A DNA stretch of 64,000 nt. Origin: Burkholderiaceae bacterium. Its GTDB lineage: Bacteria; Pseudomonadota; Gammaproteobacteria; Burkholderiales; Burkholderiaceae_B. A program made the translations under genes and the position numbers. The notes below the pieces were generated by a model. The model was not told where the DNA came from, did no database searches, and saw nothing but the letters and a program-made list of their open reading frames with translations. Position 1 is the stretch's first letter, and every line of letters begins with the position of its first letter. Of this stretch, positions 1 to 42,871 are shown piece by piece. The stretch covers positions 2,195 through 66,194 of the forward strand of contig JBFWLP010000003.1 in the NCBI GenBank assembly GCA_050252075.1, given 5' to 3'.

Positions 1-687
1 GCAGTGGTGGGCGGCGTGGCCGTGCTGGTCATTTCCCATTACATCTATCCCATGATCGCACTCATGCACGCCACACCGTCAGCGGCGCTTACGCGCGGTA
101 TCGGCCTGGTGGCGCTATGCTGTTCGCTGATTGTGGCCGGTCTGATTATTATTGTGCTTATCGATGCCCCCTGGCAACTGTTCAGCCATCACAAGAAGTT
201 GCGTATGTCCCGCCAGGACGTCAAGCAAGAGCACAAGGAAAGTGAAGGCGACCCCTACGTCAAAGGGCGTATACGGCAACAGCAGCGGGCCATGGCCCGC
301 CGGCGCATGATGGCCGAGGTACCCAAGGCCGATGTCGTGATCACCAACCCCACCCACTATGCCGTGGCCCTGTCTTACCAGGAAGGCCAGGGCGGCGCGC
401 CGCGCGTCATTGCCAAGGGGTCGGGGCACCTGGCCGCCCGCATTCGCCAGGTGGGTGTGGAGCATCGCATTCCACTGCTCAGTGCACCGCCGCTGGCCCG
501 CGCCCTGTATCACCATGTCGAGATCGGGCACGAAATTCCCACAGCGCTGTATACCGCGGTGGCCGAGGTGCTGGCATGGGTGTTCCAGCTGCGGCGCTGG
601 AACCCGGTGGTCGGCGAGGCGCCGCCCGAGCCGGTGAATTTGCAGGTTCCCCGCGATCTCGACCCTGAACCGCAAGGTGCCGCATGA
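1..687 (+). CDS. flhB: Flagellar export apparatus protein FlhB (5' truncated at window edge)
   Basis: Frame is open from base 1. Carries the NPTHYAVAL autocleavage motif and a YscU/FlhB-type C-terminal domain. Stop overlaps the flhA ATG (ATGA at 684-687). Confidence 0.9.
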   Translation, partial: AVVGGVAVLVISHYIYPMIALMHATPSAALTRGIGLVALCCSLIVAGLIIIVLIDAPWQLFSHHKKLRMSRQDVKQEHKESEGDPYVKGRIRQQQRAMARRRMMAEVPKADVVITNPTHYAVALSYQEGQGGAPRVIAKGSGHLAARIRQVGVEHRIPLLSAPPLARALYHHVEIGHEIPTALYTAVAEVLAWVFQLRRWNPVVGEAPPEPVNLQVPRDLDPEPQGAA

Positions 688-2798: not shown

Positions 2799-5251
2799 AC
2801 ATCAGTCGTTTTTTTGGCATCACCAACCGTGAGGCCATGCGCCAGGTTCGGCTGGCGCTCGGTCCCGATGCCCTTATCCTGTCGAACCGTCGCGTCAATG
2901 GCGGCGTCGAGATTCTGGCCACCGATGCCACATCTATGCCGGTCGACGAGGACGGTCAGTGGATCGGTGAATTGCCCTCCCTGACTGAAGCGGACCACAG
3001 CCTGCCCGAGCCCGACACCGATACGCCGTTTTCAGCACCTGCGCCAACGTCTGATACCTGGGTGCCGGCCGGCGAGCCCGAGCCGGTGGCCCCGGCCGAT
3101 GAGCGCGTCGAGCTCATGAGCGCCATTGGCGAGCTGCGCGGCGCGCTGGAAAATCGCATCGACGAACTGATGTGGTCGAATCAGCTGAGCCGCACTCCGC
3201 AGGCTGTGAGTGTGTTCCAGACATTGCTGAGCTGTGGATTCAGCACGGCGCTGCTGCGGGCCATGTTAAAGCGCCTGCCGCAGAATGTGTCGCAACGGGC
3301 GGCGCTCGACTGGGCACGACGTGAGCTGGTCAAGAATCTGCCGGTGCTGGGTGCGGAAGACGCGTTGTGGATCCCCGGACGGGTGCTGGCGCTGGTGGGG
3401 CCCACGGGCGTGGGTAAAACCACCACGGTGGCCAAGCTGGCGGCGCGCTGTGTGCGTCGCCACGGGCCGCAGGGCCTGGTGCTCGTCACTACCGACACCT
3501 ACCGTATCGGCGCGCACGAGCAGCTTAGAATTTACGGCGACATGCTGGGGGTTCCCGTGCACGTGGTGAACAACGCGCACGATCTGGTTCAGGTGATGGC
3601 GACCATCCATCCGGAGCAGACGGTCATCATCGACAATATCGGCATGAGCCAGCGGGATCGCTACATTGCCGACCAGGCCGCCATGCTGGCGGCTTCCACA
3701 CGCCCGGTCGGGCGCCTGCTGGTGCTCAATGCGTCCAGCCAGGGGGACACCCTTGACGAAGTCGCCCGTACCTACAGCAATGACGGCGGAACAGGGCTGC
3801 TCGGCTGCATCATTACCAAAATGGACGAAGCGAGCCGCCCCGGAGCGGCGCTGGATACCGCGATCCGGTACCGGCTGCCCATACATTATGTTTCTGTGGG
3901 CCAGAAGGTGCCCGAAGATCTGGTTTTCCCGCAGGCCGACGACCTGATCGACCAGGCCCTGACACACCGGGCCGGTGCCGGTGGCTTGTATGCCCCGTCG
4001 GAAGCCGATTTTGCGGCGCTGCTTGCCGCATCCCAGGCCACATCCCTGGAAAAAACATCACAAGAAAACGCCCAGCGGCAGCAGTGGCTGCCCATGCTGT
4101 TGTCGGTAACAGGGGCAGGCGCCGGCCTGGACATGGCACAGCTGCGTCTGGCCTGCGATACCCTGGAAGAGCATCTGGCCCCGCGCGAGGCGCTGGGGTT
4201 ATGGCGACACGCCATGGCGCAGTCCGGCACCGAGGCCGGCCACGCCCGGCCCGCCGTCGATATCGACGCCACCTTGCGCCATCTGGCTCGGGTGGTGCAA
4301 CAAATGCACAACGACAAGGCCAACGGCCTGCCGGTCATTGCCGTGCATGATCAGGTGACCTTGCCCGCCAACCTGCAGGGCGGGGGGCGGTTGCGCGCCT
4401 CGCTGCTGTTTTCCGGCCAGGGGCACCCCTGGGCGTCCACCTTGCAGCTTTCCCAGTTGTCGGGCGGTTGGCTGCCTTCCCACGGTGCGGCGTTCCACAC
4501 CCCGTTACCGGCCGTTGAACTGTTGCGGCATCAGGTTTTTCAGCTTGGCCAGCAGCTTGGGAAAACGCCGGTCGTGCATGTGTTCGACGGCGGTTCGCCC
4601 GCCGCGTGGCAAGCCCTGGAAAGCGATGGCGTTGACTGGCTGGCGTTGATCTCACCCACCACACGTGTGTACACCGACGACTGCGCTACGCTGGCCGGTG
4701 CCGTGGCGTTGTCATTGCCGTATCAGCCTCTTACCGATTTCACGGCCTGGCCTGCATTGGTGAACATTGCCAACCGGCCGGCGGCGTCGGTGGTTGTCTG
4801 GGCGGCGGATCAGAGGGTTCAGGTTCAGGCGCGCGGCGTACCGGCGACCACACTGCGTCTGGTGTCGGTGCGCATTGTCGACCGTGAAACCGGTGATCTG
4901 GTTCGCTCCGTGCTGGGGCTGGCCAATGTCGATGAGTCGCGTTTGTCCACCGACACGCTGGCCGCCTGGCTGGTGATGCGCCACGAGGCCAAAATGGTTA
5001 TGCGCCATGCGGCAACGGCCTGGCGTCAACTGGCGGGCCCGCAAGCGCCGGCCTTGCAACGCCAACTGGCCTTGACAGCCGCACAACTGGGGCTGGCTGC
5101 CTGGCAAGTGCAGCAGGATCCAAAACTTGGGTTGGTGCGGCGCGTAGCCATGGCGTTGGTGGGCAAGCGTACATTGCCGGCCTCGCTGGCCGCGCCGGTG
5201 CTGATCAAATTGTTTGCCGCCCGCGACATGGTGGCCGGCGAGGCCGGATAG
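2795..5251 (+). CDS. flhF: Flagellar SRP-type GTPase FlhF with a long uncharacterised C-terminal extension
   Basis: GTG start overlaps the flhA stop (GTGA). N-terminus MNISRFFG..REAMRQVRLALGPDALILSNR is typical of FlhF. GTPase motifs GPTGVGKTTT, TTDTYRIGA, IIDNIG and IITKMDEA are present. Residues about 391-818 have no motif I recognise. Confidence 0.85.
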   Translation: MNISRFFGITNREAMRQVRLALGPDALILSNRRVNGGVEILATDATSMPVDEDGQWIGELPSLTEADHSLPEPDTDTPFSAPAPTSDTWVPAGEPEPVAPADERVELMSAIGELRGALENRIDELMWSNQLSRTPQAVSVFQTLLSCGFSTALLRAMLKRLPQNVSQRAALDWARRELVKNLPVLGAEDALWIPGRVLALVGPTGVGKTTTVAKLAARCVRRHGPQGLVLVTTDTYRIGAHEQLRIYGDMLGVPVHVVNNAHDLVQVMATIHPEQTVIIDNIGMSQRDRYIADQAAMLAASTRPVGRLLVLNASSQGDTLDEVARTYSNDGGTGLLGCIITKMDEASRPGAALDTAIRYRLPIHYVSVGQKVPEDLVFPQADDLIDQALTHRAGAGGLYAPSEADFAALLAASQATSLEKTSQENAQRQQWLPMLLSVTGAGAGLDMAQLRLACDTLEEHLAPREALGLWRHAMAQSGTEAGHARPAVDIDATLRHLARVVQQMHNDKANGLPVIAVHDQVTLPANLQGGGRLRASLLFSGQGHPWASTLQLSQLSGGWLPSHGAAFHTPLPAVELLRHQVFQLGQQLGKTPVVHVFDGGSPAAWQALESDGVDWLALISPTTRVYTDDCATLAGAVALSLPYQPLTDFTAWPALVNIANRPAASVVVWAADQRVQVQARGVPATTLRLVSVRIVDRETGDLVRSVLGLANVDESRLSTDTLAAWLVMRHEAKMVMRHAATAWRQLAGPQAPALQRQLALTAAQLGLAAWQVQQDPKLGLVRRVAMALVGKRTLPASLAAPVLIKLFAARDMVAGEAG

Positions 5252-6127: not shown

Positions 6128-6154
6128 GTAACGGCAGAGCCGGAAAATTCTTTA
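6128..6154 (-). promoter_or_regulatory. Sigma-28 (FliA) promoter for flgMN
   Basis: Minus strand reads TAAAGAAT-N11-GCCGTTAC (consensus TAAAGTTT-N11-GCCGATAA). The -10 element ends 48 nt upstream of the flgM ATG. Confidence 0.75.
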
Positions 6155-14532: not shown

Positions 14533-14559
14533 TAAATCTTTTCGCCAGAATGCCGTTAA
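14533..14559 (+). promoter_or_regulatory. Sigma-28 promoter for flgKL
   Basis: TAAATCTT-N11-GCCGTTAA. The -10 element ends 60 nt upstream of the flgK ATG. Confidence 0.7.
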
Positions 14560-14618: not shown

Positions 14619-16286
14619 ATGAGCTTAACGAATCTAGGGTTATCGGGGTTAACGGCGGCGCAAAATCGCCTGATCACAACCGGTCACAACATCGATAATG
14701 CCGCTACCGAAGGCTACAACCGGCAGGCGGTAGCCGTGGAGACCGCCGGTGCGCGGGCGACCAGCGCCGGGTATTACGGTCGCGGTGTGCAAGTGGTTAC
14801 CGTTCAGCGTGCTTACGACAACTTTATGTACCGGCAACTGGTCAACGCCGAAACCGCCCAGGCATCGTTCACCAGCTATCAAAACGAAATCACCCAGGTG
14901 AACAATTTGTTCGCCGACCGCACAGTGGGCATTTCGCCCGCCATGCAGAAATTCTTCGACGGGGTTCACGCGGTGGCTTCGGCGCCGGCCGACAGCGCGG
15001 CGCGCCAGGAAATGCTGGGCCGGGCCAACAGCCTGGCCGCCCAGATCAACGATACCAATGCGTTTCTGAATAACCAGCGCAACAATATCAATACGCAATT
15101 AACCACCCTGGTCAGCCAGATCAACAGCCAGGCCGAGCGGGTCAACAGCCTGAATCTGCAAATTGCGCAAGCCCGGGCCTCGTCCTCGTCGCACGAGCCG
15201 AACGATCTGCTCGACCAGCGCGATCAGGTGGTACGTGAACTGAGCCAGCTGGTGGGTGTTACGGTCATCGAGCAGGAAGGCAAATACAATTTAACCCTGG
15301 GCGGCGGGCAAACGTTATTGGGCGGCACGTCGGTATTTCCGCTGCAGGCGGTGCCGGCCAGCGGCGATCCCTCGCGCCTGGTGGTGGCGGCAACGGCCAC
15401 GGGTTCCGGGGGTACCCCGGTTGCCAAGATCATCGATGAAACCCGCCTGACCGGCGGGCAACTGGGCGGGCTGCTTCAGTACCGGCGCGAATCGCTTGAC
15501 GCCGTCCAGAACGAGCTGGGCCGCCTGGCGGTGGGCCTTACCCATGCCTTCAACAGCGTTCATGCCACCGGGGCTGATCTGGCCGGCACTGCCGGCGGCG
15601 AATTCTTCCGCATTGGCGACATTACCGCCGTGCCCGGAAAGAACAACAGCGGTACCGGGCCGGCGGTTACGGCCGCCATTACCACCGCCGGCGATCTGTC
15701 GGCACAAGATTACGAAATCAGGCTCACCGACGCCACGGCGCCGGGAACCTACACCATCACCCGTCTGCCCGATGGCCAGGCGCAAACCTATACGGTCGAT
15801 GCCGGCCAGGAAATTGAAATCGACGGCGTCACGTTCGGCAATCTTGACGGCGCGCACACGGCAGGCGACTCCTGGGTAGTGCAGCCAACCCGCCAGGCGG
15901 CCGCCCAGTTTTCGGTATCCATTTCCGATCCGGCAAAAATTGCCGTGGCCAAACCCAATACCGGTACTGCCAACGGCGAAATCGGTCTTCAGCTGGCGCA
16001 GCTGCAAACCGCCAAGATCATGGGCAGCGGCAGTCTCAGCCCGAACGAGGCCTTCTCGCAAATCGTGAACCGTGTTGCCGTGCAAGCGCAGCAAAACGCC
16101 ACATCGGTGAAAGCCCAGGAAGCCCTGGTGGCCCAGAATCTGAAGACGCAGCAGTCGCTGTCGGGGGTTAACCTGAATGAAGAGTTCGTCAATCTTGAAC
16201 GCTTCCAGGAGCAGTTCCGCGCCGCTTCACGGCTTATCGACGTAAGCTCCAAGCTGTTTGAAACACTGATCAATCTGCGTTCTTAA
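14619..16286 (+). CDS. flgK: Hook-filament junction protein FlgK
   Basis: 555 aa. N-terminus LSGLTAAQNRLITTGHNIDNAATEGYNRQ and C-terminus SGVNLNEEFVNLERFQEQFRAASRLI. Confidence 0.95.
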   Translation: MSLTNLGLSGLTAAQNRLITTGHNIDNAATEGYNRQAVAVETAGARATSAGYYGRGVQVVTVQRAYDNFMYRQLVNAETAQASFTSYQNEITQVNNLFADRTVGISPAMQKFFDGVHAVASAPADSAARQEMLGRANSLAAQINDTNAFLNNQRNNINTQLTTLVSQINSQAERVNSLNLQIAQARASSSSHEPNDLLDQRDQVVRELSQLVGVTVIEQEGKYNLTLGGGQTLLGGTSVFPLQAVPASGDPSRLVVAATATGSGGTPVAKIIDETRLTGGQLGGLLQYRRESLDAVQNELGRLAVGLTHAFNSVHATGADLAGTAGGEFFRIGDITAVPGKNNSGTGPAVTAAITTAGDLSAQDYEIRLTDATAPGTYTITRLPDGQAQTYTVDAGQEIEIDGVTFGNLDGAHTAGDSWVVQPTRQAAAQFSVSISDPAKIAVAKPNTGTANGEIGLQLAQLQTAKIMGSGSLSPNEAFSQIVNRVAVQAQQNATSVKAQEALVAQNLKTQQSLSGVNLNEEFVNLERFQEQFRAASRLIDVSSKLFETLINLRS

Positions 16287-22876: not shown

Positions 22877-24388
22877 TCAGGCGAACGTGTCGATAAGCGC
22901 ATTCGATGCCACGGCGCGGGTGGGTGGCATGGCTGGCGCAGTCGAGGGTTGCGCGGAGGCGCTTCCCGGGAATGCGTGGTTGCCTGCGGAACCCGATGAG
23001 TTCCCCGAACCCTGGCCTTGCTGGGCGAATGACTGCTGCTGTGCGCTGTGGTCGCTGACATCGGCTTGACCCAGGGTGATGCCCGACTGGGCCAGCAGCT
23101 GCTGCAGCTGGGGCAGTGCGTTTTCTACGCTTTGGCGAACAGCGGCATGCGCCGATACAAATGCCGCCTGCAGGGTGGATTCGTTCAGGTTGATGGAAAT
23201 GCGGATGGGCCCCAGATCGGGTGGGTCGAGGCGCATTTCAATAGTGTGCCCGCCGGCCGGGTTTGATTGAGCCAGCGCGGTAATCTGGCGACCGAATTCG
23301 GTTCCCCAGTCGGGATGGTGGATGGGCAGCGCCACTTGCCCCGACGCCGTCGGGGCTGCTGCGCTGATTACCTGCAAACCGGGCGAAACCGATGGGGAAA
23401 ACGCCGCACCGGCCGCCTGCGTGTCATGCCGTGCCAGCCAGTCGGCCTGCATCAGGGTGGCGCTGGGCATAGGGTCGGACGGAACACCGCGCGCCTGTGA
23501 CAGCGCGGTGAAGAAATCGGGGGCGATCTCGGGTTCCTGGCCGCTTTCCAGCGCCATGGCCCGGTGATGTGCCACTTGAACCGCATGCTTCAGCCCGGCA
23601 AGCGCGGCTTCGCGCTGGCTGCCGACGGGGCGGGTGGCGGCCGAGGCGGGCGCCCGAAGCGCTGCGGTATCGTCGGCGGTTAGCGCGTTGGTTGTACGCA
23701 TGGCGCTTGTACGGGCTGCCAGGGCGGTGTTGCTAGTGGCGTCGGCAGCAAGGGTTTGAGCCGATTCTCTGGCGGCGCCCCGTGCCTGGGCCGCAAGGGC
23801 CGCCTGACCGGCTTCGGATGTGCCCGCCTGTGCGCCGCGCGACTGCGACAGGCCCTGCGTACGGGCGACATCGGCCGTATGTTTGATGTCAGCGAATGCG
23901 GTGTCGGCAGCGTTGCCGCCGGCAGACAGGCCACCGCCGGACAAACGCCCGTTAACGGCCGCCGGTGCTTGACCGTTCAGGGGCGATTGCCCTTTGGCGT
24001 TCGCAGCGTCGCGACCAGAGTGCCCTGTGGCGGTTGCGCCGGCGCGGGTCGCCGAAACCGTATTTCCCCAGCGTGCCTGGATGCCCTGTCGTACGGCGGC
24101 CGCTTCGGCGGCCAGTGTCAGTGTTGTGGCGGGCTGAGCAGCAACATGGCCGGCGGCGGCTGCGGCTCCCGCCTGCGCGGCGGTGGCATCAGAGGCTGCC
24201 GCGGTGTCGGCGGCGGATGATTCACGTTCGGTTCGCTTTTGCGGATCGCGGGCGGGCGGTGTGGCCCGTTGCGCCGACAGCACGTTGGCAAACCCGGAGT
24301 GGCCGGCATCGGCGTGATTGACGTTTGCGCTGTGCACGCCGCCCGGCGTTGAGGCGGGTAGGACTGTTATAAGTTGTTGTGTCGTCAT
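22877..24388 (-). CDS. fliK: Hook-length control protein FliK
   Basis: 503 aa, Ala/Gln/Ser/Pro-rich. C-terminal Flg_hook-type block (IEMRLDPPDLGPIRISINLNESTLQAAFVSAHAAVRQSVENALPQLQQLLAQSGITLG). Confidence 0.85.
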   Translation of the reverse strand: MTTQQLITVLPASTPGGVHSANVNHADAGHSGFANVLSAQRATPPARDPQKRTERESSAADTAAASDATAAQAGAAAAAGHVAAQPATTLTLAAEAAAVRQGIQARWGNTVSATRAGATATGHSGRDAANAKGQSPLNGQAPAAVNGRLSGGGLSAGGNAADTAFADIKHTADVARTQGLSQSRGAQAGTSEAGQAALAAQARGAARESAQTLAADATSNTALAARTSAMRTTNALTADDTAALRAPASAATRPVGSQREAALAGLKHAVQVAHHRAMALESGQEPEIAPDFFTALSQARGVPSDPMPSATLMQADWLARHDTQAAGAAFSPSVSPGLQVISAAAPTASGQVALPIHHPDWGTEFGRQITALAQSNPAGGHTIEMRLDPPDLGPIRISINLNESTLQAAFVSAHAAVRQSVENALPQLQQLLAQSGITLGQADVSDHSAQQQSFAQQGQGSGNSSGSAGNHAFPGSASAQPSTAPAMPPTRAVASNALIDTFA

Positions 24389-28129: not shown

Positions 28130-29780
28130 TCTTGCTCTCCATCCATTGACGCAACACCATGGCCACGGCGCGCGGGTCGCGCTCGGCCAGCTGGCGTGCC
28201 ATATTCAGGTTGCTTTCGTAGCGGTTCATCTCGGCGGCCAGGCGGGCTTCGGCCTCGGCCTGCTCGCGGTTCAGTTTTTCGCTTTCGCGCTCGGCGTAGG
28301 CGCGGGCCTGTTCTTCGCGTGCCTTTTCAACCATACGGCGCAACCACAATTGCCACAGCAGATAAATGACAAAGCCAACAATCAGGTACTTGACCAATTG
28401 CAAACTGTAATCCAGATACAGCGGGTTTTGCCAGAACGGAATGCCGGGTTCTGGGGTGAACTGGCTGTTCACCACGCTGAGCGAGTCGCCGCGTTCGGCC
28501 GAATACCCCATGGCCTGGCGAACCAGTTCGTTCAGTTGTTCAAGTTCCGGCGCGGGCAGCGGTGCCGGTTCGCCGTCGAGCTCGCGATAATTCACCACCA
28601 CGGCGACGGACAGGCGGCGTATCTGGCCGATGGCGTCTTTGGTGTGGCTGATGGTGCGGTCAACTTCGTAGTTGATGGTGGCGTCGGAGCGGGCGCTGCC
28701 TTGGGCTTCGGCGGTTTGCGTGGTGACGGCATTGGGCGCATTGGGTGCGTTCTGCGCATTGGCCTGGTTCTGCGGATTCTGCGCCGCCGGCGGGACGTCG
28801 ATGGGGGCGACGGCGGTTCCAGGAGGCTGATTCGTAAGCGCGCCCGGAATGCCCTGCGGGGGCAGCACGCCGTTTTCAGTGGATGCACTGGATTGCCGGC
28901 TGCGCACCGCCGCCTGGCCCGGTTGCTGGTTGGGCCGGTAGACCTCGGAGGTTTGTTCGCGCTGAGAAAAGTCGAGATCGGCGCTGACCTGCGCTCGTAC
29001 ATTGCCCGCACCCACAATGGGGTTGAGCAGGGTAAGAATGCGTTGAACCGTTCGTTGCTCAATGTCGTGCACCAGGTCGCGGCGCGTGGCGTCCATGGCG
29101 GCATCGCCGGTGGGTGCCGTAAGCAGACGGCCGTTCTGGTCAACCACCGAGACGTTTTCGGCCGTTAAATGGGGAACACTGGACGACACCAGCCAGGTTA
29201 CCGCATTGACCTGGGCTTCGCTGAGCGTGCGGCCCGGGTACAGCGTAACCAGCACCGACGCGGTCGGGGGCTGGCGATCGCGCACAAACAGCGATTCGCG
29301 CGGAATGGCCAGGTGAACCCGAGCATGCTGCACCGCATGCAGCGACTGGATGGAGCTGCTCAGTTCGCCTTCCAGAGCCCGCTGGTAGGTGACCTGCTCG
29401 GCAAACTGGCTGGCGCCGAAACGTGTCTGGTCGAGCAGTTCGAACCCGGCCTCGCCGCTGCGCGGCAGCCCTTGCTGGGCCAGTTGCAGGCGCGCTTCGT
29501 GCACTTTGTCGGCCGGCACCAGGATGGCATTGCCCGACTCGGCCAGCCGGTACGGCACGTTCATTTGGGTGAGCGCCTGCACAATGGCGCCGCCGTCGCG
29601 GTCTTCGATATTGGAAAACAGCACTTTGTAATCGGGGGTGCGCAGCCACAACAAGGCCACGGCCAGAAGGGCTATGGCGCCGGCTGCCACACCCAGCTGG
29701 ACGGTGCGGGGCCAGCCGGCGATGGAATTCAGGCCGGGAATCGATGGCAGGCGGGCCATCCAGTTGGCCGCCGTGCTCAT
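28110..29780 (-). CDS. fliF: MS-ring protein FliF
   Basis: 556 aa. N-terminal TM segment, YscJ/FliF-type ring domain and a second TM segment near the C-terminus (VKYLIVGFVIYLLWQLWL). Confidence 0.95.
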   Translation of the reverse strand: MSTAANWMARLPSIPGLNSIAGWPRTVQLGVAAGAIALLAVALLWLRTPDYKVLFSNIEDRDGGAIVQALTQMNVPYRLAESGNAILVPADKVHEARLQLAQQGLPRSGEAGFELLDQTRFGASQFAEQVTYQRALEGELSSSIQSLHAVQHARVHLAIPRESLFVRDRQPPTASVLVTLYPGRTLSEAQVNAVTWLVSSSVPHLTAENVSVVDQNGRLLTAPTGDAAMDATRRDLVHDIEQRTVQRILTLLNPIVGAGNVRAQVSADLDFSQREQTSEVYRPNQQPGQAAVRSRQSSASTENGVLPPQGIPGALTNQPPGTAVAPIDVPPAAQNPQNQANAQNAPNAPNAVTTQTAEAQGSARSDATINYEVDRTISHTKDAIGQIRRLSVAVVVNYRELDGEPAPLPAPELEQLNELVRQAMGYSAERGDSLSVVNSQFTPEPGIPFWQNPLYLDYSLQLVKYLIVGFVIYLLWQLWLRRMVEKAREEQARAYAERESEKLNREQAEAEARLAAEMNRYESNLNMARQLAERDPRAVAMVLRQWMESKNGPSET

Positions 29781-30078
29781 CGGCTACCTCGGGGGTGGCA
29801 ACTGCAGGGTGCGGGAAGCATCAAACGGGACATCAGCAAGGTTTGCATGCGGCAGGGTTAGGTAAGTTGAGGCTGCATTATTGCCTGACCGGCCCGTTTG
29901 CCAAGCGCTGAAAAACACCATTTTTGGGTGTTATTTAGCTGCTATGGCCCGCACGCCGGGGCCATGCCCGGCCTGTAGCGAAGAATAGCGAGTAATTTTT
30001 GCCTTTGTTAGATCGCTTGCCGGCGATCGGCGTTCGGTATAGTGGCAGCTACTGTGTACTCACTTTCTGGTTAACGTC

Positions 30079-30420
30079 ATGGCTATCGACAAACTAACCG
30101 CCATTGAAAACGTGCTCGCGCAAATGCGCGTTATGTCCCAGGCGGCTTCAGCCGGGGCAGCGGTTGGCGCGCCGGGTAACGGGCACTCGTCCGTGAACGG
30201 CGGTTTCGCCGGCGAACTGGCACGTTCGCTTGAAAAAGTGGCCGAATTGCAGAATCAGTCGTCGGCCCAGGCCCGGGCGTTTCAACTGGGCGAGCCCAAT
30301 ATATCGCTGAACGATGTCATGATCGACATGCAAAAGGCCAGCATTGCCTTTCAAACCACTGTGCAGGCTCGCAACCGTTTGGTGGCGGCTTACCAGGAAA
30401 TTGCCAGTATGCCGATCTAA
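30079..30420 (+). CDS. fliE: Hook-basal body complex protein FliE
   Basis: 113 aa. C-terminus VMIDMQKASIAFQTTVQARNRLVAAYQEI. Divergent from fliF. Confidence 0.9.
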   Translation: MAIDKLTAIENVLAQMRVMSQAASAGAAVGAPGNGHSSVNGGFAGELARSLEKVAELQNQSSAQARAFQLGEPNISLNDVMIDMQKASIAFQTTVQARNRLVAAYQEIASMPI

Positions 30421-30740
30421 GCCTGGGTGCCAGGGCCTGCCTGGTCGGAAGCGGCCAGAAGTTCCTGGTGTTTCCGGCCGCCCTCAAGCGAGTACAGCCA
30501 TGCCAGCAGTTCGGCCACCGCCACATACAACTGCGGTGGAATATGGGCGTCAAGGTTCACCTGCATCAGCAGCCCCACCAGTTCGGGCGATTCATGCACG
30601 TACAGGCCGTGTTCCTTGGCGGTACGAATAATGTTGTCGGCCACGGTGCCATAGCCCTTGGCCACCACGCGCGGCGCCGCATCGGTTTTATCGTAGGCAA
30701 TGGCAACGGCGCTGGCCCGGCCGTCGTCGCGGGGTCTCAT
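30417..30740 (-). CDS. Stand-alone FlhB C-terminal (CC subdomain)-like protein, EscU/YscU/FlhB family
   Basis: 107 aa. Aligns by eye with the post-NPTH part of the FlhB in this window: AVAIAYDKTDAAPRVVAKGYG...IPPQLYVAVAELLAWLYSL against YAVALSYQEGQGGAPRVIAKGSG...IPTALYTAVAEVLAWVFQL. It has no TM region and no NPTH motif. Confidence 0.8.
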   Translation of the reverse strand: MRPRDDGRASAVAIAYDKTDAAPRVVAKGYGTVADNIIRTAKEHGLYVHESPELVGLLMQVNLDAHIPPQLYVAVAELLAWLYSLEGGRKHQELLAASDQAGPGTQA

Positions 30741-32350
30741 AGCGGCCCCCTGGCGCCCGTACCGCCGGCAGCGTCGTATTTGTCCCAGTAATCGTCATCG
30801 ATCAGATCGGCCAGCGGCGACGCCGCCGGGCCTTCCGCACGGGCGGCCGGTTCGGGCGCCGTGTCGTGGCGGCTGACGGAAAGCTGGCTGAGCACCAGCC
30901 CCTGCGCGCTGTAACGGCTGCGCAAGGCGTCGAGCTGTTGCGCCAGCATCGGCGCCGAATCGGGCGCAACCAGCCGCATGACCACCTGTTGATCCGTCAG
31001 TGTAATGCGCGCCTGAACCTGCCCCAGCTCGGGCAGATCAACGGTGAGGGTGGTTGCCCAATGGGCCGGGTGCTCGTCGCCGTTCATGTCTTGCCAGGCT
31101 TCCCGCCGCTCGATCTGCCATTCGGTGGGGGCATCGGGCCACACTTCGCCACGCCAGGCGACCTGCTGGTTCGCCAGCACGTCGAGCTGCTGGCGAACCA
31201 GCAGATGGGTTTTGGGATCCATGGCATTCAGACCCGACGCCAATGTGCCCGCGCCTGCGCCGGCAGCGGTGGCGGCGGATGCAGCCGCCGGTGGAGCGCC
31301 CGCCGGTGCCCCCGGACTGGCGGCCTGAACCGGGGCGCCGGGCATTGGTCCGGCCGATGCCGTGTTCGGAGCACCCTGGCGCAAGGCCGGCGAGGCAGTT
31401 TGCGCGGCCAGCTGGGCTTGCGGTTCTTGCCGAAGCTGCGATGGGGCCATTTTGCCGAATGCCAGCTGGGCCAGGTGCGCTTCGTAAAACATGCCGCTGT
31501 TCTGAATGGCTGCCGAGAGCGCCTGCGCCAGTTGCCCGGCAACCTGCCCTGCTACTTGGCCCGAAAGGGCTGCCGCTGCCGTTGTACCCGCCGCGGCGCC
31601 GGTCGCCGAGGCGGCTGACCCGGGCGCGGACGTTGACAAGGCCGGCGCCCCGCCGGCAGCACCCGAAGGAGAGCCGACCGCCTGGCCCGACGGCCCGGCC
31701 GATGCGCCGGCGCTGCCCGACGCACCCGGTGTTCCGGAAGGTGACGTCTGTGCGTTCGATGACCCCGGTGCGGATCCAGATTGCGGGGTGCCGCCCGCCG
31801 ATGGCGGCGTGGCACCTGTGGGTGCCGCCGGGCTGCCGGATGCCGACGATGACCCACCCGCCCCGGGCGAGGCGGCTTGCCCGGCAGAGGGTTGGCTTTG
31901 CCGGCCTTCGCCCTGGGCTTGCCCCTGCGGGCCGAACGGAAACAACGGGCGTCGGTGGTGGGTTAAGGGCGGCGATTCGGGATAACCGGCCAGCAGCGCC
32001 AGTATGGTTTGTGCGGCAAACCCCAGGCGGGTAGGGGCCGAGGCCGTGGCCGCCGTGCTGGGCGCGTTGCGTGCCTGCAATAGTTCGGCGGTTTTGGGAT
32101 CGAGCCGGCTGCGATCAATGGTTTGCCGGTTCGACTGTTCGGTATGGCTGCGGGCACGATCAACGGCTTCACGCGGGTCGCGCTGGGTGTCGTTGGGCAG
32201 GGCGTCGGTGCGTGCCGCCGTGCCGGGCTGGCTGACCGCGTCGGGCCGGGCGCCCGTAACCAGATTCGATTGCTGGGAAAGCGTGGTTCCCAGCATGGCA
32301 TCGAGACGCTGCACCAGCAGGGTGCCGAGGGCCGACGGGCCGGAGCTCAT
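30737..32350 (-). CDS. FliK-like (hook-length-control-like) protein, second paralog
   Basis: 537 aa with a very low-complexity Ala/Gly/Ser/Pro centre. The C-terminal block (LTVDLPELGQVQARITLTDQQVVMRLVAPDSAPMLAQQLDALRSRYSAQGLVLSQLSVS) resembles the FliK C-domain. Start overlaps the fliT stop, and its own stop overlaps the next gene's start. Confidence 0.65.
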   Translation of the reverse strand: MSSGPSALGTLLVQRLDAMLGTTLSQQSNLVTGARPDAVSQPGTAARTDALPNDTQRDPREAVDRARSHTEQSNRQTIDRSRLDPKTAELLQARNAPSTAATASAPTRLGFAAQTILALLAGYPESPPLTHHRRPLFPFGPQGQAQGEGRQSQPSAGQAASPGAGGSSSASGSPAAPTGATPPSAGGTPQSGSAPGSSNAQTSPSGTPGASGSAGASAGPSGQAVGSPSGAAGGAPALSTSAPGSAASATGAAAGTTAAAALSGQVAGQVAGQLAQALSAAIQNSGMFYEAHLAQLAFGKMAPSQLRQEPQAQLAAQTASPALRQGAPNTASAGPMPGAPVQAASPGAPAGAPPAAASAATAAGAGAGTLASGLNAMDPKTHLLVRQQLDVLANQQVAWRGEVWPDAPTEWQIERREAWQDMNGDEHPAHWATTLTVDLPELGQVQARITLTDQQVVMRLVAPDSAPMLAQQLDALRSRYSAQGLVLSQLSVSRHDTAPEPAARAEGPAASPLADLIDDDYWDKYDAAGGTGARGPL

Positions 32351-32721
32351 GGGTTAAATACAGGCGCCGAATAGGTTTGCAGTACGGCTTGTTGTCGTTT
32401 CAGGGTGCCCAGCAGGTGGCTAAGGCGCTCCAGCTCGGGGGTGACCAGGTGCCGGATGCAGGCATCGTTGTCGAGTATGCGGATAAGAATGTCGCGCCGG
32501 GCGTTGCGGTCGTCGGTGGACAGTTCGGGAAACTCCTGGAGCCGGGCGACTTCGGTGTTATAGGCCTGACCGAGTTCGATGACTTTATCCCAGTGTTTTG
32601 CCTGCGCCTCGGTCAGCATGCGCCCGGAAATGCGTTCAATAACCTGGTACTGCTGGAGCAGGCGGGTGGCCGATTGCAAGGGAGCGCCTGGTGGGGGAGT
32701 AGACATAAGGTAAGAAAGCAT
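32347..32721 (-). CDS. fliT: Flagellar chaperone FliT
   Basis: About 124 aa, helical (KHWDKVIELGQAYNTEV...ILIRILDNDACIRHLVTPELERLSHLLG). Sits after fliS. Start is uncertain (ATG at 32721 or 32706); the 185-aa track ORF would overlap fliS. Confidence 0.7.
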   Translation of the reverse strand: MLSYLMSTPPPGAPLQSATRLLQQYQVIERISGRMLTEAQAKHWDKVIELGQAYNTEVARLQEFPELSTDDRNARRDILIRILDNDACIRHLVTPELERLSHLLGTLKRQQAVLQTYSAPVFNP

Positions 32722-32761
32722 AAATACCCAGCGATGAAAAGAGTGATTCGTTGCTGCCCGA

Positions 32762-33232
32762 TTAACCTGCCGCTGCCAGCTCGGTGTGTGCCGATGCCGC
32801 CGGGCCGGGCTTGCCGGCCGCCGCAGGTTCGGTGACTTCCTTCCAGGCCGAGGCAATTTCCGTAAGGATGCGCTCGGCGGTGTCGAGACGCGACATGTCG
32901 CCATGCAGGTTCGCCTGAAGAAGGTTATAAATGATCAGGTCGTAACTGGTAATCAGGCTTTTGGCTACCTGGCCACCCGCTTCTTCGTTCACCGCAGCTT
33001 TCAGGCCCGAACCCACGATATCGATGGCTTTGGATATGGTTTGCCCCCGGCCGGGGATATCGCCGTTTTCCATGTGCAGCCGTGCTTTCATGATGGCGGC
33101 GCGGGCGCCGTTGAACAGCAGGGTGATCAGGCGTTCCGGGCTGGCCGACAGCACTTCCGTTTCCAGCCCCACATTGGCGTAAGACTGTGCCGATTTTTGG
33201 CGACCGGCGCCGCGTGGCATGGTGTAGGTCAT
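32762..33232 (-). CDS. fliS: Flagellin chaperone FliS
   Basis: 156 aa. SPERLITLLFNGARAAIMKA... and YDLIIYNLLQANL motifs. ATG overlaps the fliD stop. Confidence 0.9.
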   Translation of the reverse strand: MTYTMPRGAGRQKSAQSYANVGLETEVLSASPERLITLLFNGARAAIMKARLHMENGDIPGRGQTISKAIDIVGSGLKAAVNEEAGGQVAKSLITSYDLIIYNLLQANLHGDMSRLDTAERILTEIASAWKEVTEPAAAGKPGPAASAHTELAAAG

Positions 33233-34638
33233 TTCTGTTGTCCCCCAAGCTGGCTGAGCGCCGACAGTTGCTGCGTTAGGTAGGTGCTGGTGGAATTCAT
33301 TTGGGCGATCAGTTTGTCGAGCTGAATGAACTGGTTGCGATAGACTTCCATTTTGGTGTCGATACGTTCGGAAGCCGCGTCGTATTGCTGGTTCAGCACT
33401 TTCAGGTTGCTGTTGATGCTTTTGGTGGCACTGCTGAGCAGGCCGTCGGTTTTGACGTAAACGTCGGTGGCCGTGGTAATCCGCCCGCTAAGGGCGGTGC
33501 CGCCCGACAGCAGGTTTTTTACGTCGACCAGGTTGTCTTTCAGCGCTTCGGTAAGCGCATCGTTGTCAACCTTCAGGGTGCCGGTGGTGGGGTCGGTGGT
33601 GATGCCCATTTGCGACAGGTTGCGCACGGTACCCGTGCTGCCCGATACATTAATGGCTTCACGCACCTGGCTTTGAATGCGGCGTGCCAGGGAGTCGCCC
33701 GTGAGCGCACTGCCCCGTTGTGTATCGGTGTTGTACGAGGTGAGCGATTTGATCGAGTTTTGCAGCTTGTTGTAGGCCGAAACGAACGCGTTGACGGCAT
33801 CTTTGGCCACGGTATCGTCGCGCTGGATGGACAGGCTTTCGGGTGCCGTGTTTTCTTTGGTCAGGTTGAGCGTAACGCCTTCAATGGCATCGGTGAGAGT
33901 GTTGGTTTGACTGGTGACATCGATGCCGTTGATGGTAAGCGTGGCGTTCTTTGCGGCGGTTTCGCTGAGCGCACTGGCGGGATCGCCCTGAGTAAAGCCC
34001 AAGGCGTCGTTCAGTGCGGTGACATCGGTGCCGGCGTCGACCCCGGCGACAGTAATGGATTTGACCGCCGCCTGTTCGCCCATGCCTTCGGCATTGAGCA
34101 ACAGATAGTGCGGGTTCGCGGGATCGCCGTTGTTCACCAGCGTAGCCTGAACGCCCACGCCCGACGTATTGTTGATGGCCTGGGTGATGCCTTCGAGCGA
34201 GGTGTCGTCGGCGGCTACACTAATGGTTGTGGTGGTGCCGTCGACCAGTTCAACATTAACGGTAACATCGCCCGAGGCCAGGGCCGTATCGCGGCTGGCC
34301 TGCCCGGTGGCGCTTTTGAGCGTTTGCGCGCTGGCCAGCTGGGTTACCTGAATTTGATAGTTGCCGGCGATGGCACTGCTGGAGGCCGTGGCGGAAAACG
34401 CCTCGCTGCCTGTGGTTGCTTTCAGGGCGCCAAACGTTTCGGCTTTTTCCAGGGTGGCGGCCGCGGTTTTCAGCCCTTCCAGCGCGCTTTTAATGGTTCC
34501 GTAGGCCGACAACCGGCTTTTTTCGGCACTGAGGCGGTTGCTGATAAGGTTGAGCGACTGGCTTTCACTGGTTCGCAGATTGGACAGCAATTGATCCAGT
34601 GGAAGACCTGAACCAACGCCGATGGATGAAATGGCCAT
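33229..34638 (-). CDS. fliD: Filament cap protein FliD
   Basis: 469 aa. N-terminus ISSIGVGSGLPLDQLLSNLRTSE and C-terminus YRNQFIQLDKLIAQMNSTSTYLTQQL. Confidence 0.95.
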   Translation of the reverse strand: MAISSIGVGSGLPLDQLLSNLRTSESQSLNLISNRLSAEKSRLSAYGTIKSALEGLKTAAATLEKAETFGALKATTGSEAFSATASSSAIAGNYQIQVTQLASAQTLKSATGQASRDTALASGDVTVNVELVDGTTTTISVAADDTSLEGITQAINNTSGVGVQATLVNNGDPANPHYLLLNAEGMGEQAAVKSITVAGVDAGTDVTALNDALGFTQGDPASALSETAAKNATLTINGIDVTSQTNTLTDAIEGVTLNLTKENTAPESLSIQRDDTVAKDAVNAFVSAYNKLQNSIKSLTSYNTDTQRGSALTGDSLARRIQSQVREAINVSGSTGTVRNLSQMGITTDPTTGTLKVDNDALTEALKDNLVDVKNLLSGGTALSGRITTATDVYVKTDGLLSSATKSINSNLKVLNQQYDAASERIDTKMEVYRNQFIQLDKLIAQMNSTSTYLTQQLSALSQLGGQQK

Positions 34639-34674
34639 GAAATACTCCCGATGCGGGTATTGTGCTACTTTTGG

Positions 34675-34692
34675 CCGGGCATCAATGCCCGG
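34675..34692 (-). other. Perfect 7-bp stem-loop between flaG and fliD
   Basis: CCGGGCA-TCAA-TGCCCGG with no U-tract on the minus strand. Possible RNA processing or stability element rather than a terminator. Confidence 0.4.
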
Positions 34693-34756
34693 TTAAACCA
34701 CGAAAACGACTGGTACTTTGGGCATTTACCGCCCGCGAAGAACCGCGCCGCACTGC

Positions 34757-35155
34757 CTAAACGCGCGTGTCGACCCCGCCGCCCTGCATTTGAACGATAG
34801 CCCGCGCCACCTTCAGCACGGCTTCCGAAGGCACCTTGCGAATGACCTCGCCGCTTTCGGCATCGATGATGGAGACGACCAGCCGTTGGGCTTCGTCGTC
34901 CATTTCAAAGCGCATACCCGTGCGCCACGAACGTAACGATTCGTTCACTTTTTCCAGGGCGTCGGCAACCGATTGCTGCGGGTCGCGGGCAAAATCGGAC
35001 TGCTGCTGTTGCTGTTGCGAGTTTTCTGCACTTTTGGCCGATGCGGCGCCCGTAACGTGCACGGCCGGATCCGGCTGCACGCTGGGGTACTGAACGGCCG
35101 TCGGAGCAACACCTGATACAGCGGGGGCGACTCCGGAGGCGATTGGGCTGACCAT
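34757..35155 (-). CDS. flaG: FlaG-family flagellar protein
   Basis: 132 aa. C-terminus LRFEMDDEAQRLVVSIIDAESGEVIRKVPSEAVL is typical of FlaG. First gene after a sigma-28 promoter. Confidence 0.85.
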   Translation of the reverse strand: MVSPIASGVAPAVSGVAPTAVQYPSVQPDPAVHVTGAASAKSAENSQQQQQQSDFARDPQQSVADALEKVNESLRSWRTGMRFEMDDEAQRLVVSIIDAESGEVIRKVPSEAVLKVARAIVQMQGGGVDTRV

Positions 35156-35207
35156 GATGGACTCCTTGGTATTCGAATAACCTGAAACACGTACGCTTCT
35201 ACACGCG

Positions 35208-35234
35208 TTAACGGCAGTCGTTCACGAAACTTTA
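35208..35234 (-). promoter_or_regulatory. Sigma-28 promoter for the flaG-fliDST operon
   Basis: Minus strand reads TAAAGTTT-N11-GCCGTTAA. The -10 element ends 53 nt upstream of the flaG ATG. Confidence 0.8.
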
Positions 35235-35250
35235 ATTTATTCAATTAAGT

Positions 35251-35280
35251 TTGAAAACCCGTGCTTTTCATTTGTATGGT
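35251..35280 (+). promoter_or_regulatory. Candidate sigma-70-type promoter for fliA
   Basis: TTGAAA-N18-TATGGT, about 80 nt upstream of the fliA ATG. Pattern match only. Confidence 0.3.
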
Positions 35281-35361
35281 GCATGCTACGAAATGAAACA
35301 ATAGGCCTGCAGTCATCCAATGGTACAGTTTGGCGTTTTGCGTTCTACATACACATAATTC

Positions 35362-36126
35362 ATGGCAAGTTCCGAAGACATTCTGGTTGGGCAGTATGCG
35401 CCGCTGGTGCGCCGTTTGGCGTTGCAGCTGGTTTCGCGCTTGCCCCCCAGCGTGGAACTGGATGATCTGATTCAGGCCGGCCTGATGGGTTTGCTGGATG
35501 CCGTTCGGCGCTATCAGGAAATGCCCGAAGCCCAGTTTGAAACGTATGCGTCCACCCGCATACGCGGCGCCATGCTCGACGAACTGCGCAGCCAGGACTG
35601 GCTGCCACGCAGCGCCCGCAGCAAAAGCCGCACCATTGAGCACACCATACAGAAACTTACCCACGAACAGCTGCGGCCGCCGACCGAATCTGAAATTGCC
35701 GGTGCGCTGGGCGTGCCCCTGCCCGACTACCACGCCATGCTCGACGACGCGCGCGGCGTACAAATCGTCCATTACGAGGATCTGGCCCGCAATATCGACG
35801 AGGGGGCGGCGCATCCGCTGGATTTCGGCAGTGACCAGGCCCCGCTGAGCACCCCGTGGGACAACCCGCTAACCGTGCTGGAATCGGCCGGCTTGCGGCA
35901 TGCCCTGGTGGCCGCCATCGGGGCACTGCCCGAACGCGAGCAACTGGTGCTGTCACTGCAATTCGAGCAAGACCTGAACCAGAAAGAAATCGCCGCCGTC
36001 ATGGGCATTACCGAAGGCCGGGTGTCGCAGCTGCGATCCCAGGCCGTGGCCCGGCTGCGTGCCTCGCTGGCCGCAGGGGCATGGGATGAAAGCCCGGGCG
36101 ATGACTTGTTGTCGGGTTTGTTGTAG
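35362..36126 (+). CDS. fliA: Flagellar sigma factor FliA (sigma-28)
   Basis: 254 aa. Region 2 (DDLIQAGLMGLLDAVRRYQ) and region 4 HTH (LNQKEIAAVMGITEGRVSQLRSQAV). Confidence 0.95.
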   Translation: MASSEDILVGQYAPLVRRLALQLVSRLPPSVELDDLIQAGLMGLLDAVRRYQEMPEAQFETYASTRIRGAMLDELRSQDWLPRSARSKSRTIEHTIQKLTHEQLRPPTESEIAGALGVPLPDYHAMLDDARGVQIVHYEDLARNIDEGAAHPLDFGSDQAPLSTPWDNPLTVLESAGLRHALVAAIGALPEREQLVLSLQFEQDLNQKEIAAVMGITEGRVSQLRSQAVARLRASLAAGAWDESPGDDLLSGLL

Positions 36127-37544: not shown

Positions 37545-37619
37545 GTCGATTAAAAGTGGCGCCCGGCTGTTGTAAAGGGTTTGCCAGAGTGGGCGATAGT
37601 TTCGCAGTGCTTTTTATCG

Positions 37620-41549: not shown

Positions 41550-42713
41550 TTAACGCAGCAGAGACAACACGCCTTGAGGCAACTGATTCGCTTGCGCCAG
41601 AACGGAGGTTCCAGCCTGTTGCAGAATCTGAGAGCGAGTCATATTTGCTACTTCCACCGCGTAGTCTGCATCTTCGATTCGCGAACGGGCAGCCGTCAGG
41701 TTTGTCGAATTCGTTTGCAGGTTGGTGATGGCAGTTTCAAGACGGTTTTGAATCGCCCCGAGATCAGATCTTAAGGTGTCTACGGTTGTCAAGGCCGTGT
41801 CCAGGGCAGCCAACGGATTATCCGTTGCGCCAGTTTTTAGTGCCCGTGCAGTCAGATCACTCATGTCCAGCGTGAAAGCGGCAGTAGTGGTGGCTGTTGC
41901 AGCATCGTTCGGGTTTAGTGCAACATAATATACACGGTTCTCTAAGCCCGTTTCTGCCTGTTCTGTTGAGGTAAGAGCAGCGACTGTGACTTGGGCAAAC
42001 CAGTTGCCTGCGTCGTCTACGAGCGCGTTAGCGGTATCGATCGTGACCGTGCCTGTAGTGATTCCAAGATCCGTTTTAAATTCTGCAGTGCCAGCCGCTG
42101 TAACCGATGAGTCTGCAATCTCTGTGGTTTCGCCCCATGCGGCCTCAAATGCAGCAGTAGATGCTGCAACTGGGGTGCCTTTCGCGCCATTGACATTGAA
42201 TGTCGACAGGTCAAGTGAATTGGAGGTAATCGCTTCCAGATCAATTTCGATCACTTCACCGTCATTGGCACCCACCTGAATGTTCAGTGTGGTGTCGTTC
42301 GCCAGAACTTTTACGCCGTTGAAGTCGGTTTGTGCTGAAATACGGTCAATTTCAGCCAGGCGTTGATTAATTTCAGCCTGCAGTGAGTCGCGGTCGGCAG
42401 TCGTGTATGTATCGTTCAGTGACTGAACGGCCAGTTCACGAATGCGTTGCAGGTTGGTGTTGACTTCGTTCAGCGCGCCTTCGGCGGTTTGGGCTACCGA
42501 AATACCGTCGTTGGCGTTACGCTGGGCTTGTGCCAGGCCGCGAGTTTGTGCGCTCATGCGGTTGGCAATGGCCTGGCCGGCGGCGTCGTCTTTGGCGCTG
42601 TTGATGCGCAGGCCCGACGACAGGCGCTCAATGGCGTTGCCCAGGGCGGATTGGGATTTCTGCAGGTTGTTCTGAGCAACCAGGGACAGATAGTTGGTGT
42701 TGATAACTGACAT
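41550..42713 (-). CDS. fliC: Flagellin FliC
   Basis: Start at the ATG at 42713, with AAGGAG 7 nt upstream. MSVINTNYLSLVAQNNLQKSQSALGNAIERLSSGLRINSAKDDAAGQAIANR... C-terminus SQILQQAGTSVLAQANQLPQGVLSLLR. The central domain is Thr/Ala/Ser-rich. Confidence 0.95.
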   Translation of the reverse strand: MSVINTNYLSLVAQNNLQKSQSALGNAIERLSSGLRINSAKDDAAGQAIANRMSAQTRGLAQAQRNANDGISVAQTAEGALNEVNTNLQRIRELAVQSLNDTYTTADRDSLQAEINQRLAEIDRISAQTDFNGVKVLANDTTLNIQVGANDGEVIEIDLEAITSNSLDLSTFNVNGAKGTPVAASTAAFEAAWGETTEIADSSVTAAGTAEFKTDLGITTGTVTIDTANALVDDAGNWFAQVTVAALTSTEQAETGLENRVYYVALNPNDAATATTTAAFTLDMSDLTARALKTGATDNPLAALDTALTTVDTLRSDLGAIQNRLETAITNLQTNSTNLTAARSRIEDADYAVEVANMTRSQILQQAGTSVLAQANQLPQGVLSLLR

Positions 42714-42844
42714 GATGAACTCCTTCGAGTAACAAATACGGCGACACGAGATCCGCCTGATTGCCAAGAAGAAAACGTTGGGTTTCTGTGCCGTATTACT
42801 GGTTTACACCCTGACTTAAAGCCGTTTCTTCCTGTTCACTCTCG

Positions 42845-42871
42845 TTAACGGCCCGGTTTGGAACAACTTTA
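42845..42871 (-). promoter_or_regulatory. Sigma-28 promoter for fliC
   Basis: Minus strand reads TAAAGTTG-N11-GCCGTTAA. The -10 element ends 132 nt upstream of the fliC ATG. Confidence 0.8.

Follow-up and report, generated by a model that had tools for sequence, protein, structure and literature searches.

The fliK2-flhX gene pair at the end of the fliDST string in a Burkholderiaceae genome: a lineage variant of a known flagellar accessory pair

The cleaved C-terminal domain (CCD) of FlhB holds the flagellar export gate in its early mode and docks early substrates. FliK ejects this domain when the hook-basal body is complete, and the CCD vanishes as sigma-28-dependent genes switch on (PMC13344023). 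Why, then, should a genome encode what looks like a further version of both switch partners, and place the two genes behind a string of late flagellar genes? The question is raised by a 64,000-nucleotide stretch of DNA (hereafter, the window) from a Burkholderiaceae bacterium (contig JBFWLP010000003.1 of the metagenome-assembled genome GCA_050252075.1; the complete sequence was also found in a landfill metagenome run). In the window, flaG-fliD-fliS-fliT is followed by two open reading frames (ORFs) of 537 and 107 residues, which a first-pass annotation had described as a FliK-like protein and a stand-alone FlhB-CC-like protein. The observation is confirmed; its interpretation, a soluble and late-expressed copy of the two interaction partners, is partly supported.

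The pair in the window is almost certainly the Burkholderiales version of a widespread accessory pair that already has a name, fliK2-flhX. This pair was named in Pseudomonas putida KT2440 (PP_4328/PP_4329), where it forms a FliA-dependent bicistronic operon that is conserved across Pseudomonas (Leal-Morales et al., bioRxiv 10.1101/2021.08.29.457346). FlhX as a kind was defined by Pallen in 2005, as cited in the same preprint. Comparative studies of Campylobacterota and Actinobacteria use it as a standard flagellar marker, and an flhX-fliK pair of Nitratiruptor is mentioned in a Campylobacterota comparative study. The first-pass annotation knew of no experimentally established function for such a pair; there are experiments on FlhX, however, in that Helicobacter pylori FlhX (HP1575) is reported to replace FlhB function in part when FlhB-CC is deleted (Wand 2006 and Smith 2009, both as cited in that preprint).

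The relationship of the 107-residue protein to FlhB is confined to one end of the family. FlhX aligns with only the last 74 positions of Pfam PF01312 (Bac_export_2; positions 262-335 of 335, E 2e-17), and its BLAST alignment with the FlhB of the window (42% identity over 77 residues, E 1e-13) begins two residues past NPTH. When 35 FlhX homologues are combined in a profile, it hits chain B of two FlhB-C crystal structures, 3B1S and 3B0Z (E 2e-14), beginning at the fourth or fifth residue of that chain, which is the FlhB fragment made by autocleavage; the same profile detects the injectisome protein PscU-C (5CUL) more weakly (E 2e-4). At the position of NPTHY in FlhB, FlhX reads DGRAS, and NPTH is absent from 35 close and 20 class-level homologues. 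No hydrophobic segment, transmembrane domain or CN linker was found in FlhX. An FlhB/SctU gate protein is recognized by four transmembrane helices, the CN linker and NPTH, of which FlhX has none, carrying the CC portion only. It agrees with FlhX sensu Pallen 2005 in that its homology is post-NPTH only, its length of 107 residues falls within the 90-120 or so of the kind and it is extra to a full-length FlhB. FlhX is a copy of the FlhB CCD, predicted to be soluble, that starts just past the self-cleavage point. These results bear out the earlier description of the small ORF as the post-NPTH fragment of FlhB that lacks NPTH and a membrane anchor and can be aligned with the FlhB C-terminus of the window. 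In all, 4904 FlhX homologues and 385 FliK2 homologues were found.

In Salmonella FlhB, residues A286, P287, A341 and L344 form the pocket in which early substrates dock (PMC13344023; PMC8983047, on docking of the gate recognition motif). Their counterparts in FlhX, A22, P23, A76 and L79, are invariant or nearly so in close homologues and are kept in the 20 class-level homologues.

The 537-residue protein, FliK2, carries a Flg_hook domain (PF02120) at residues 425-496 (E 1e-12, 48 bits versus a cut-off of 29.8). Its AlphaFold model is confident only at residues 430-500 (predicted local distance difference test, pLDDT, 82-93), and in Foldseek searches this region matches the C-domain of FliK (2RRL, probability 0.99) and the switch domain of PscP (5CUK, probability 1.0, root-mean-square deviation 2.0 Å over 64 columns). 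Upstream of the switch domain lies a variable linker, rich in Ala, Gly, Ser and Pro, which aligns poorly among homologues. A FliK-type block behind such a spacer is what the first-pass annotation had seen. An alignment of 35 homologues resolves four conserved blocks, the three listed in Table 1 and one at residues 100-136, between which the linkers vary freely in length and composition. The motif of the central block is kept class-wide and reads SGxFYExHL in the 35-homologue alignment, and the block is helical in the model (helix 257-297); the VRQQLxVLANQ peptide in front of the T3S4/Flg_hook domain is conserved in 95 related loci. The domain is followed by a variable, non-conserved tail only. 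No Pfam domain was found in the N-terminal and central blocks, and the homologue alignment contains no conserved match to the gate recognition motif (FxxxPhi).

FliK2 is not an orthologue of the hook ruler FliK, though it shares the T3S4 switch domain: a BLAST comparison with the window's canonical FliK gives only E 2.9, confined to the T3S4 region. Among the features that mark a FliK orthologue, FliK2 has the C-terminal T3S4 domain and lacks the FliK tail, overall similarity and a position between fliJ and fliL; the canonical fliK of the window lies downstream of the fliFGHIJ string. The layout of FliK2, in which a long flexible spacer separates a conserved N-terminal region from the T3S4 domain, nevertheless bears a superficial likeness to FliK, and FliK2 might be secreted as a second ruler that measures a different structure (rod, filament or sheath), FlhX being the receptor reserved for it. 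We regard this as very improbable. Linker length is free among close relatives, with a range of 386 to 583 residues in the family, and in public runs the fliK2 linker of strain variants differs by 9 or 15 nt through in-frame indels. Similarity to FliK stops at the T3S4 domain, and a FliK-type terminal tail occurs in none of 98 loci, as described below. Moreover, only a single flagellar system is present: the whole genome (3.36 Mb) has exactly one FlhB and one FlhX, one FliK and one FliK2, the only other PF01312 gene being the genuine flhB (a 386-residue frame) and the only other Flg_hook gene the canonical fliK, which excludes a second flagellar system in this genome.

Two further observations concern the fliK2 sequence. 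In contigs from other samples, 15 nt are missing or 9 nt are inserted in the linker, near 31285 and 31804, and a 94%-identical FliK2 variant of 545 residues exists, so linker length is polymorphic between strains. In addition, a near-perfect inverted repeat with a 17-bp stem occupies 31163-31204; it results from reverse complementarity between the codons that encode LLVRQQ and LLANQQ. We considered this hairpin as a terminator for the convergent fliE and rejected it: across 95 loci, complementarity of the arms has a median of 10/18, and as the peptide is conserved and the arms are not, the hairpin is incidental and follows from the codons that this strain happens to use.

In this GC-rich genome the region is overlapped on other strands by many long spurious frames, and the two ORFs could in principle be chance frames of this sort or decaying duplicates with no function. 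The chance of this is negligible. Both contain significant domains and have homologues, thousands in number, with invariant blocks, their order and overlaps are conserved across the class, and their indels are in-frame only. Because of the homologues, the conserved blocks and the in-frame indels, fliK2 and flhX are to be regarded as genes, and on these sequence grounds a functionless relic is effectively refuted.

We sampled 201 genomes at the class level, of which 97 had an FlhB-type match and 67 had at least two. In all 62 genomes with a short FlhX-type ORF, a Flg_hook match immediately preceded it on the same strand (gap between the domain matches 16-470 bp, median 82), and exactly two Flg_hook genes were present in 59 of them. 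Among the 30 genomes with FlhB only, one Flg_hook gene was found in 25, none in three and more than one in two. This co-occurrence and co-absence indicate that fliK2 and flhX are gained and lost together. No natural FliK2-FlhX fusion was seen; long frames near some FlhX matches differ from the Flg_hook frames.

Closer to the window, a FliK2-like ORF lies directly upstream of an FlhX-like ORF in 20 of 20 relatives at the family and order levels, and flaG-fliD-fliS-fliT precedes the pair in most of the 20. The same string, fliD-fliS-fliT-fliK2-flhX, convergent with fliE, is present in Cupriavidus metallidurans CH34. Throughout the order the pair normally follows fliDST; its place here is no peculiarity of the window genome. 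Of 98 loci, 95 have a fliK2 stop that overlaps or directly adjoins the flhX start, and among 77 loci the fliT-fliK2 spacing is -4 in 36 and at most +3 in 57. In the window, the fliT/fliK2 and fliK2/flhX junctions are both 4-bp ATGA overlaps, in agreement with the overlapping stop and start codons reported earlier, and no Shine-Dalgarno-like sequence was seen before fliK2, which indicates translational coupling. The start of fliT is probably the ATG at 32721 or that at 32706, within an open frame that reaches 32904. Overall, fliK2 and flhX constitute an obligate and translationally coupled pair. By its named homologues the genome belongs to Alcaligenaceae, the pair also occurring in Pollutimonas, Candidimonas, Castellaniella, Bordetella and Achromobacter, and a scan of genome contigs matched close relatives (Alcaligenaceae) only; NCBI labels FlhX as 'EscU/YscU/HrcU family ... 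switch protein' and FliK2 as 'flagellar hook-length control protein FliK'.

The coupling bears on the idea that FlhX is a cytoplasmic decoy, which stays undocked and titrates the binders of FlhB-CCD (rod and hook subunits with the gate recognition motif, and the C-domain of FliK), sharpening or protecting the switched state. FlhX has an intact early-substrate pocket, is predicted to be soluble with no tether and is made with a T3S4 partner, so that the CCD-T3S4 interface would matter. If FlhX is coupled one-to-one with FliK2, however, little of it would be free. A sink also seems unnecessary after CCD ejection, when early substrates have no dock anyway, and the H. pylori complementation cited in the P. 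putida preprint implies an ability of FlhX to act at the gate. We consider a decoy quite unlikely.

The position of the pair suggests late expression. The only sigma-28-type promoter motif ahead of the six-gene string is that upstream of flaG (Table 1), for no other sigma-28-type match with at most two mismatches was present on the minus strand of 30740-35200; a sigma-70 scan of the minus strand inside the string gave no match. The window contains seven matches to the sigma-28-type motif versus 2.07 expected. As a motif, then, the single promoter that had been proposed for the string stands. Upstream of fliK2 in 20 class-level loci, about three convincing sigma-28-type motifs were seen, the gene starts being uncertain. 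In four runs labelled as metatranscriptomic, near-identical contigs of low depth cover the fliT/fliK2 junction (32158-32432) and the fliK2/flhX/fliE junctions (30321-30818), which is compatible with co-transcription of fliT-fliK2-flhX. We find it plausible that fliK2 and flhX are co-transcribed from the sigma-28-type promoter. No Rfam RNA family was found in 29700-35500. Further sigma-28-type matches of the form TAAAG-N14-GCCG(A/T)TAA lie at 14533-14559 (+), 42845-42871 (-), 6128-6154 (-) and 37573-37599 (+); the first two are directly 5' of the long ORFs 14619-16286 (+) and 41550-42767 (-), so that the same motif stands before the ORFs starting at 14619 and 42767.

Comparison with characterized systems places the pair among its relatives. 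In P. putida, as here, a Flg_hook-domain gene stands immediately upstream of a stand-alone FlhB-CC homologue, each in addition to a canonical gene, fliK or flhB; this likeness is drawn from the published description of PP_4328/PP_4329 and not from direct alignment. In contrast, the P. putida pair is a bicistronic operon with its own FliA promoter, whereas the pair in the window is joined to flaG-fliD-fliS-fliT, so that the two differ in how the genes are organized and not in which genes are present. With FlhX proteins such as H. pylori HP1575 and Bacillus subtilis YlqH, the 107-residue protein has in common a length of about 90-110 residues, homology to post-NPTH FlhB only, the absence of a membrane domain and a flagellar context. 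In the Salmonella FliK/FlhB-CCD switch the same domain families, T3S4 and FlhB-CCD, meet, and FlhX keeps the pocket residues (PMC13344023; Evans 2013; Bryant 2022), but FlhX is untethered and has no autocleavage site, FliK2 has neither a recognizable ruler region nor the FliK tail, and FliK and FlhB are made early whereas FliK2 and FlhX are predicted to be late. The injectisome pairs YscP-YscU and PscP-PscU are more distant: the FliK2 C-domain superposes on PscP (5CUK) and the FlhX profile detects PscU-C, but the context here is purely flagellar, and no injectisome-type SctU was found in the genome, which has only two PF01312 matches.

The Bacillus gene pair ylqG-ylqH was also examined as a candidate for the same module. 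In Bacillus velezensis (NZ_CP083716.1, locus positions 1774-3755), the FlhB-like ylqH overlaps the end of ylqG by 4 bp, and ylqG encodes a 567-residue protein annotated as a glycosyl transferase. No FliK-like partner was recognized there: Pfam found no Flg_hook domain in YlqG, and hhalign of the FliK2 profile against YlqG aligned YlqG 469-541 to the T3S4 region with a probability of only 0.2%.

The C-terminus of FliK2 is a lineage trait. According to Chevance et al. (mBio 2026, PMC13344023), FliK needs its last five residues to flip the switch. In the window, the canonical FliK ends in ...NALIDTFA and FliK2 in ...GARGPL. Elsewhere in the class, in other orders, 19 of 20 FliK2 proteins end in a hydrophobic FliK-type tail (e.g., LLDIKA, LVDEQA and LIDEQA), against 0 of 98 from the order of the window, many of which terminate no more than three residues after the T3S4 domain; within the order, the contrast between FliK and FliK2 tails uses the canonical FliK of the window alone. 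The N-terminus of FliK2 differs between the window's order and other orders as well: a motif common outside Burkholderiales, (W/L)xxGQxLxA, is absent from the lineage of the window. FliK2 of Burkholderiales is thus distinguished from the P. putida type by the missing hydrophobic tail, another N-terminus and its attachment to the fliDST string.

What might such a pair do? We give about even chances to the explanation that its products form a late-made, soluble T3S4-CCD complex that controls the FlhB-CCD site of the export gate. The products of fliK2 and flhX would appear late, and the cell would contain about as much of one as of the other. The T3S4 domain of FliK2 would bind FlhX as FliK-C binds FlhB-CCD, and FlhX would dock non-covalently, in trans, at the FlhB-CN site of the export gate, a step suggested by the 'spare part' result in H. 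pylori. By analogy with the known switch, the prospects of these two molecular steps holding jointly are slightly better than even. The pair could then control the occupancy of the vacated CCD site, either by re-locking or braking gates that have switched or by re-arming gates that have lost their CCD, and FliK2 would serve as a holder, tether or release factor for FlhX. Since the genes of the pair turn on just after ejection of the native CCD, control of the vacated site is the most economical reading. Of its two directions, we hold re-locking or braking to be possible, if doubtful.

A bolder proposal is that FliK2-FlhX makes a supposedly irreversible switch adjustable, in that FlhX re-docks on FlhB-CN and takes the gate back towards the early, locked state. 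FlhX together with FlaG, which is encoded in the same operon, would brake filament-type export, and FliK2 would set the amount of dockable FlhX; the Burkholderiales FliK2, having no tail, would be able to hold but not to eject, and in other orders the tailed FliK2 would use a beta-strand that mimics FlhB-CN to complete or release FlhX. This proposal is speculative, and we think it rather improbable.

Another possibility is that FlhX is a spare part proper: free FlhX would replace FlhB-CCD that has been lost prematurely from basal bodies under construction, restoring rod and hook export, and FliK2 would be no more than its stabilizing chaperone. New basal bodies are still being built in cells in which sigma-28 is already active, loss of the CCD abolishes early export (PMC13344023), the pocket residues of FlhX are conserved, and in H. 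pylori, according to the work cited in the P. putida preprint, FlhX allows export to go on with FlhB-CC deleted. FlhX also lacks the first beta-strand, which FlhB-CN supplies, and may need a partner to stay folded. On the other hand, a free pool of CCD could re-dock after ejection by FliK and block switching, premature loss of the CCD in wild-type cells is unsupported, and the T3S4 nature of the partner is left unexplained. We therefore judge a spare part for early export unlikely.

Several points weigh against the late T3S4-CCD complex and the assignments from which it is built. The top NCBIfam model for FlhX is TIGR00789, 'FlhB-like flagellar biosynthesis protein' (flhB_rel), but its score of 90 bits is below the curated cut-off of 117.35 bits, which none of 41 relatives and none of 201 class-level genomes reach; FlhX is consequently filed under the broader FlhX kind and not under the TIGR00789 equivalog. 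The AlphaFold model of FlhX alone is poor (pLDDT 53, from a 35-sequence alignment), so its fold is assigned by sequence homology and the model was left out of the fold search. The contigs from the metatranscriptomic-labelled runs are undirected and of similar depth across the region, and DNA carry-over is possible. A late re-lock would oppose flagellin export, and its purpose is not explained. Finally, because FliK2 here is without the tail that FliK needs for the switch, it may act on FlhX otherwise than FliK acts on FlhB.

Table 1. Features of the flagellar gene string and related genes in the 64,000-nucleotide window
Feature	Coordinates	Strand	Basis
sigma-28-type promoter motif TAAAGTTT-N11-GCCGTTAA upstream of flaG	35208..35234	-	motif scan
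flaG	34757..35155	-	Pfam FlaG, E 9e-21
fliD (filament cap)	33229..34638	-	Pfam FliD_N and FliD_C
fliS (flagellin chaperone)	32762..33232	-	Pfam FliS, E 2e-30
fliT	32347..32721	-	Pfam FliT at residues 96-178 of the long frame
fliK2, 537 residues, predicted non-ruler protein with a FliK-type switch domain	30737..32350	-	Pfam, AlphaFold, Foldseek, homologues
FliK2 N-terminal conserved block, residues 1-45, the most conserved part in the family	32216..32350	-	alignment of homologues
FliK2 central helical block, residues 273-312, SG(L/M)F(Y/L)E..L motif	31415..31534	-	alignment, AlphaFold
FliK2 helix VRQQLxVLANQ followed by the T3S4/Flg_hook domain, residues 376-495	30866..31225	-	Pfam, AlphaFold, Foldseek
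flhX, 107 residues, stand-alone homologue of the cleaved FlhB C-terminal domain	30417..30740	-	Pfam, BLAST, profile
fliE, convergent with flhX	30079..30420	+	Pfam FliE
canonical fliK, 503 residues, C-terminus ...NALIDTFA	22877..24388	-	other Flg_hook gene
3' part of the genuine flhB	1..687	+	NPTH codons at 346-357

At the far end of the pair, flhX and the convergent fliE overlap by their stop codons (30417-30420), and no terminator-like site was seen between the two stops; in relatives, the two genes abut or lie up to about 70 bp apart. Near the start of the window, the 3' part of flhB is followed by a 704-residue ORF (684-2798), presumably flhA, and then by an 818-residue ORF (2795-5251, +). 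The latter has a signal recognition particle-type GTPase motif, GPTGVGKTTT, in mid-protein with long extensions on both sides, and is far longer than typical FlhF proteins; both descriptions are read from the sequence.

Taken as a whole, the pair in the window is an ordinary member of the known fliK2-flhX kind, with some lineage-specific traits. About two thirds of the sampled flagellated Gammaproteobacteria encode the removable FlhB lock in free form, along with a dedicated version of the domain that works on it. The lock-ejection model of 2026 (PMC13344023) makes this kind a more attractive experimental target, and the strict co-occurrence and co-absence of the two genes, the conserved pocket of FlhX and the lineage-specific loss of the FliK2 tail provide concrete hypotheses that are cheap to test.

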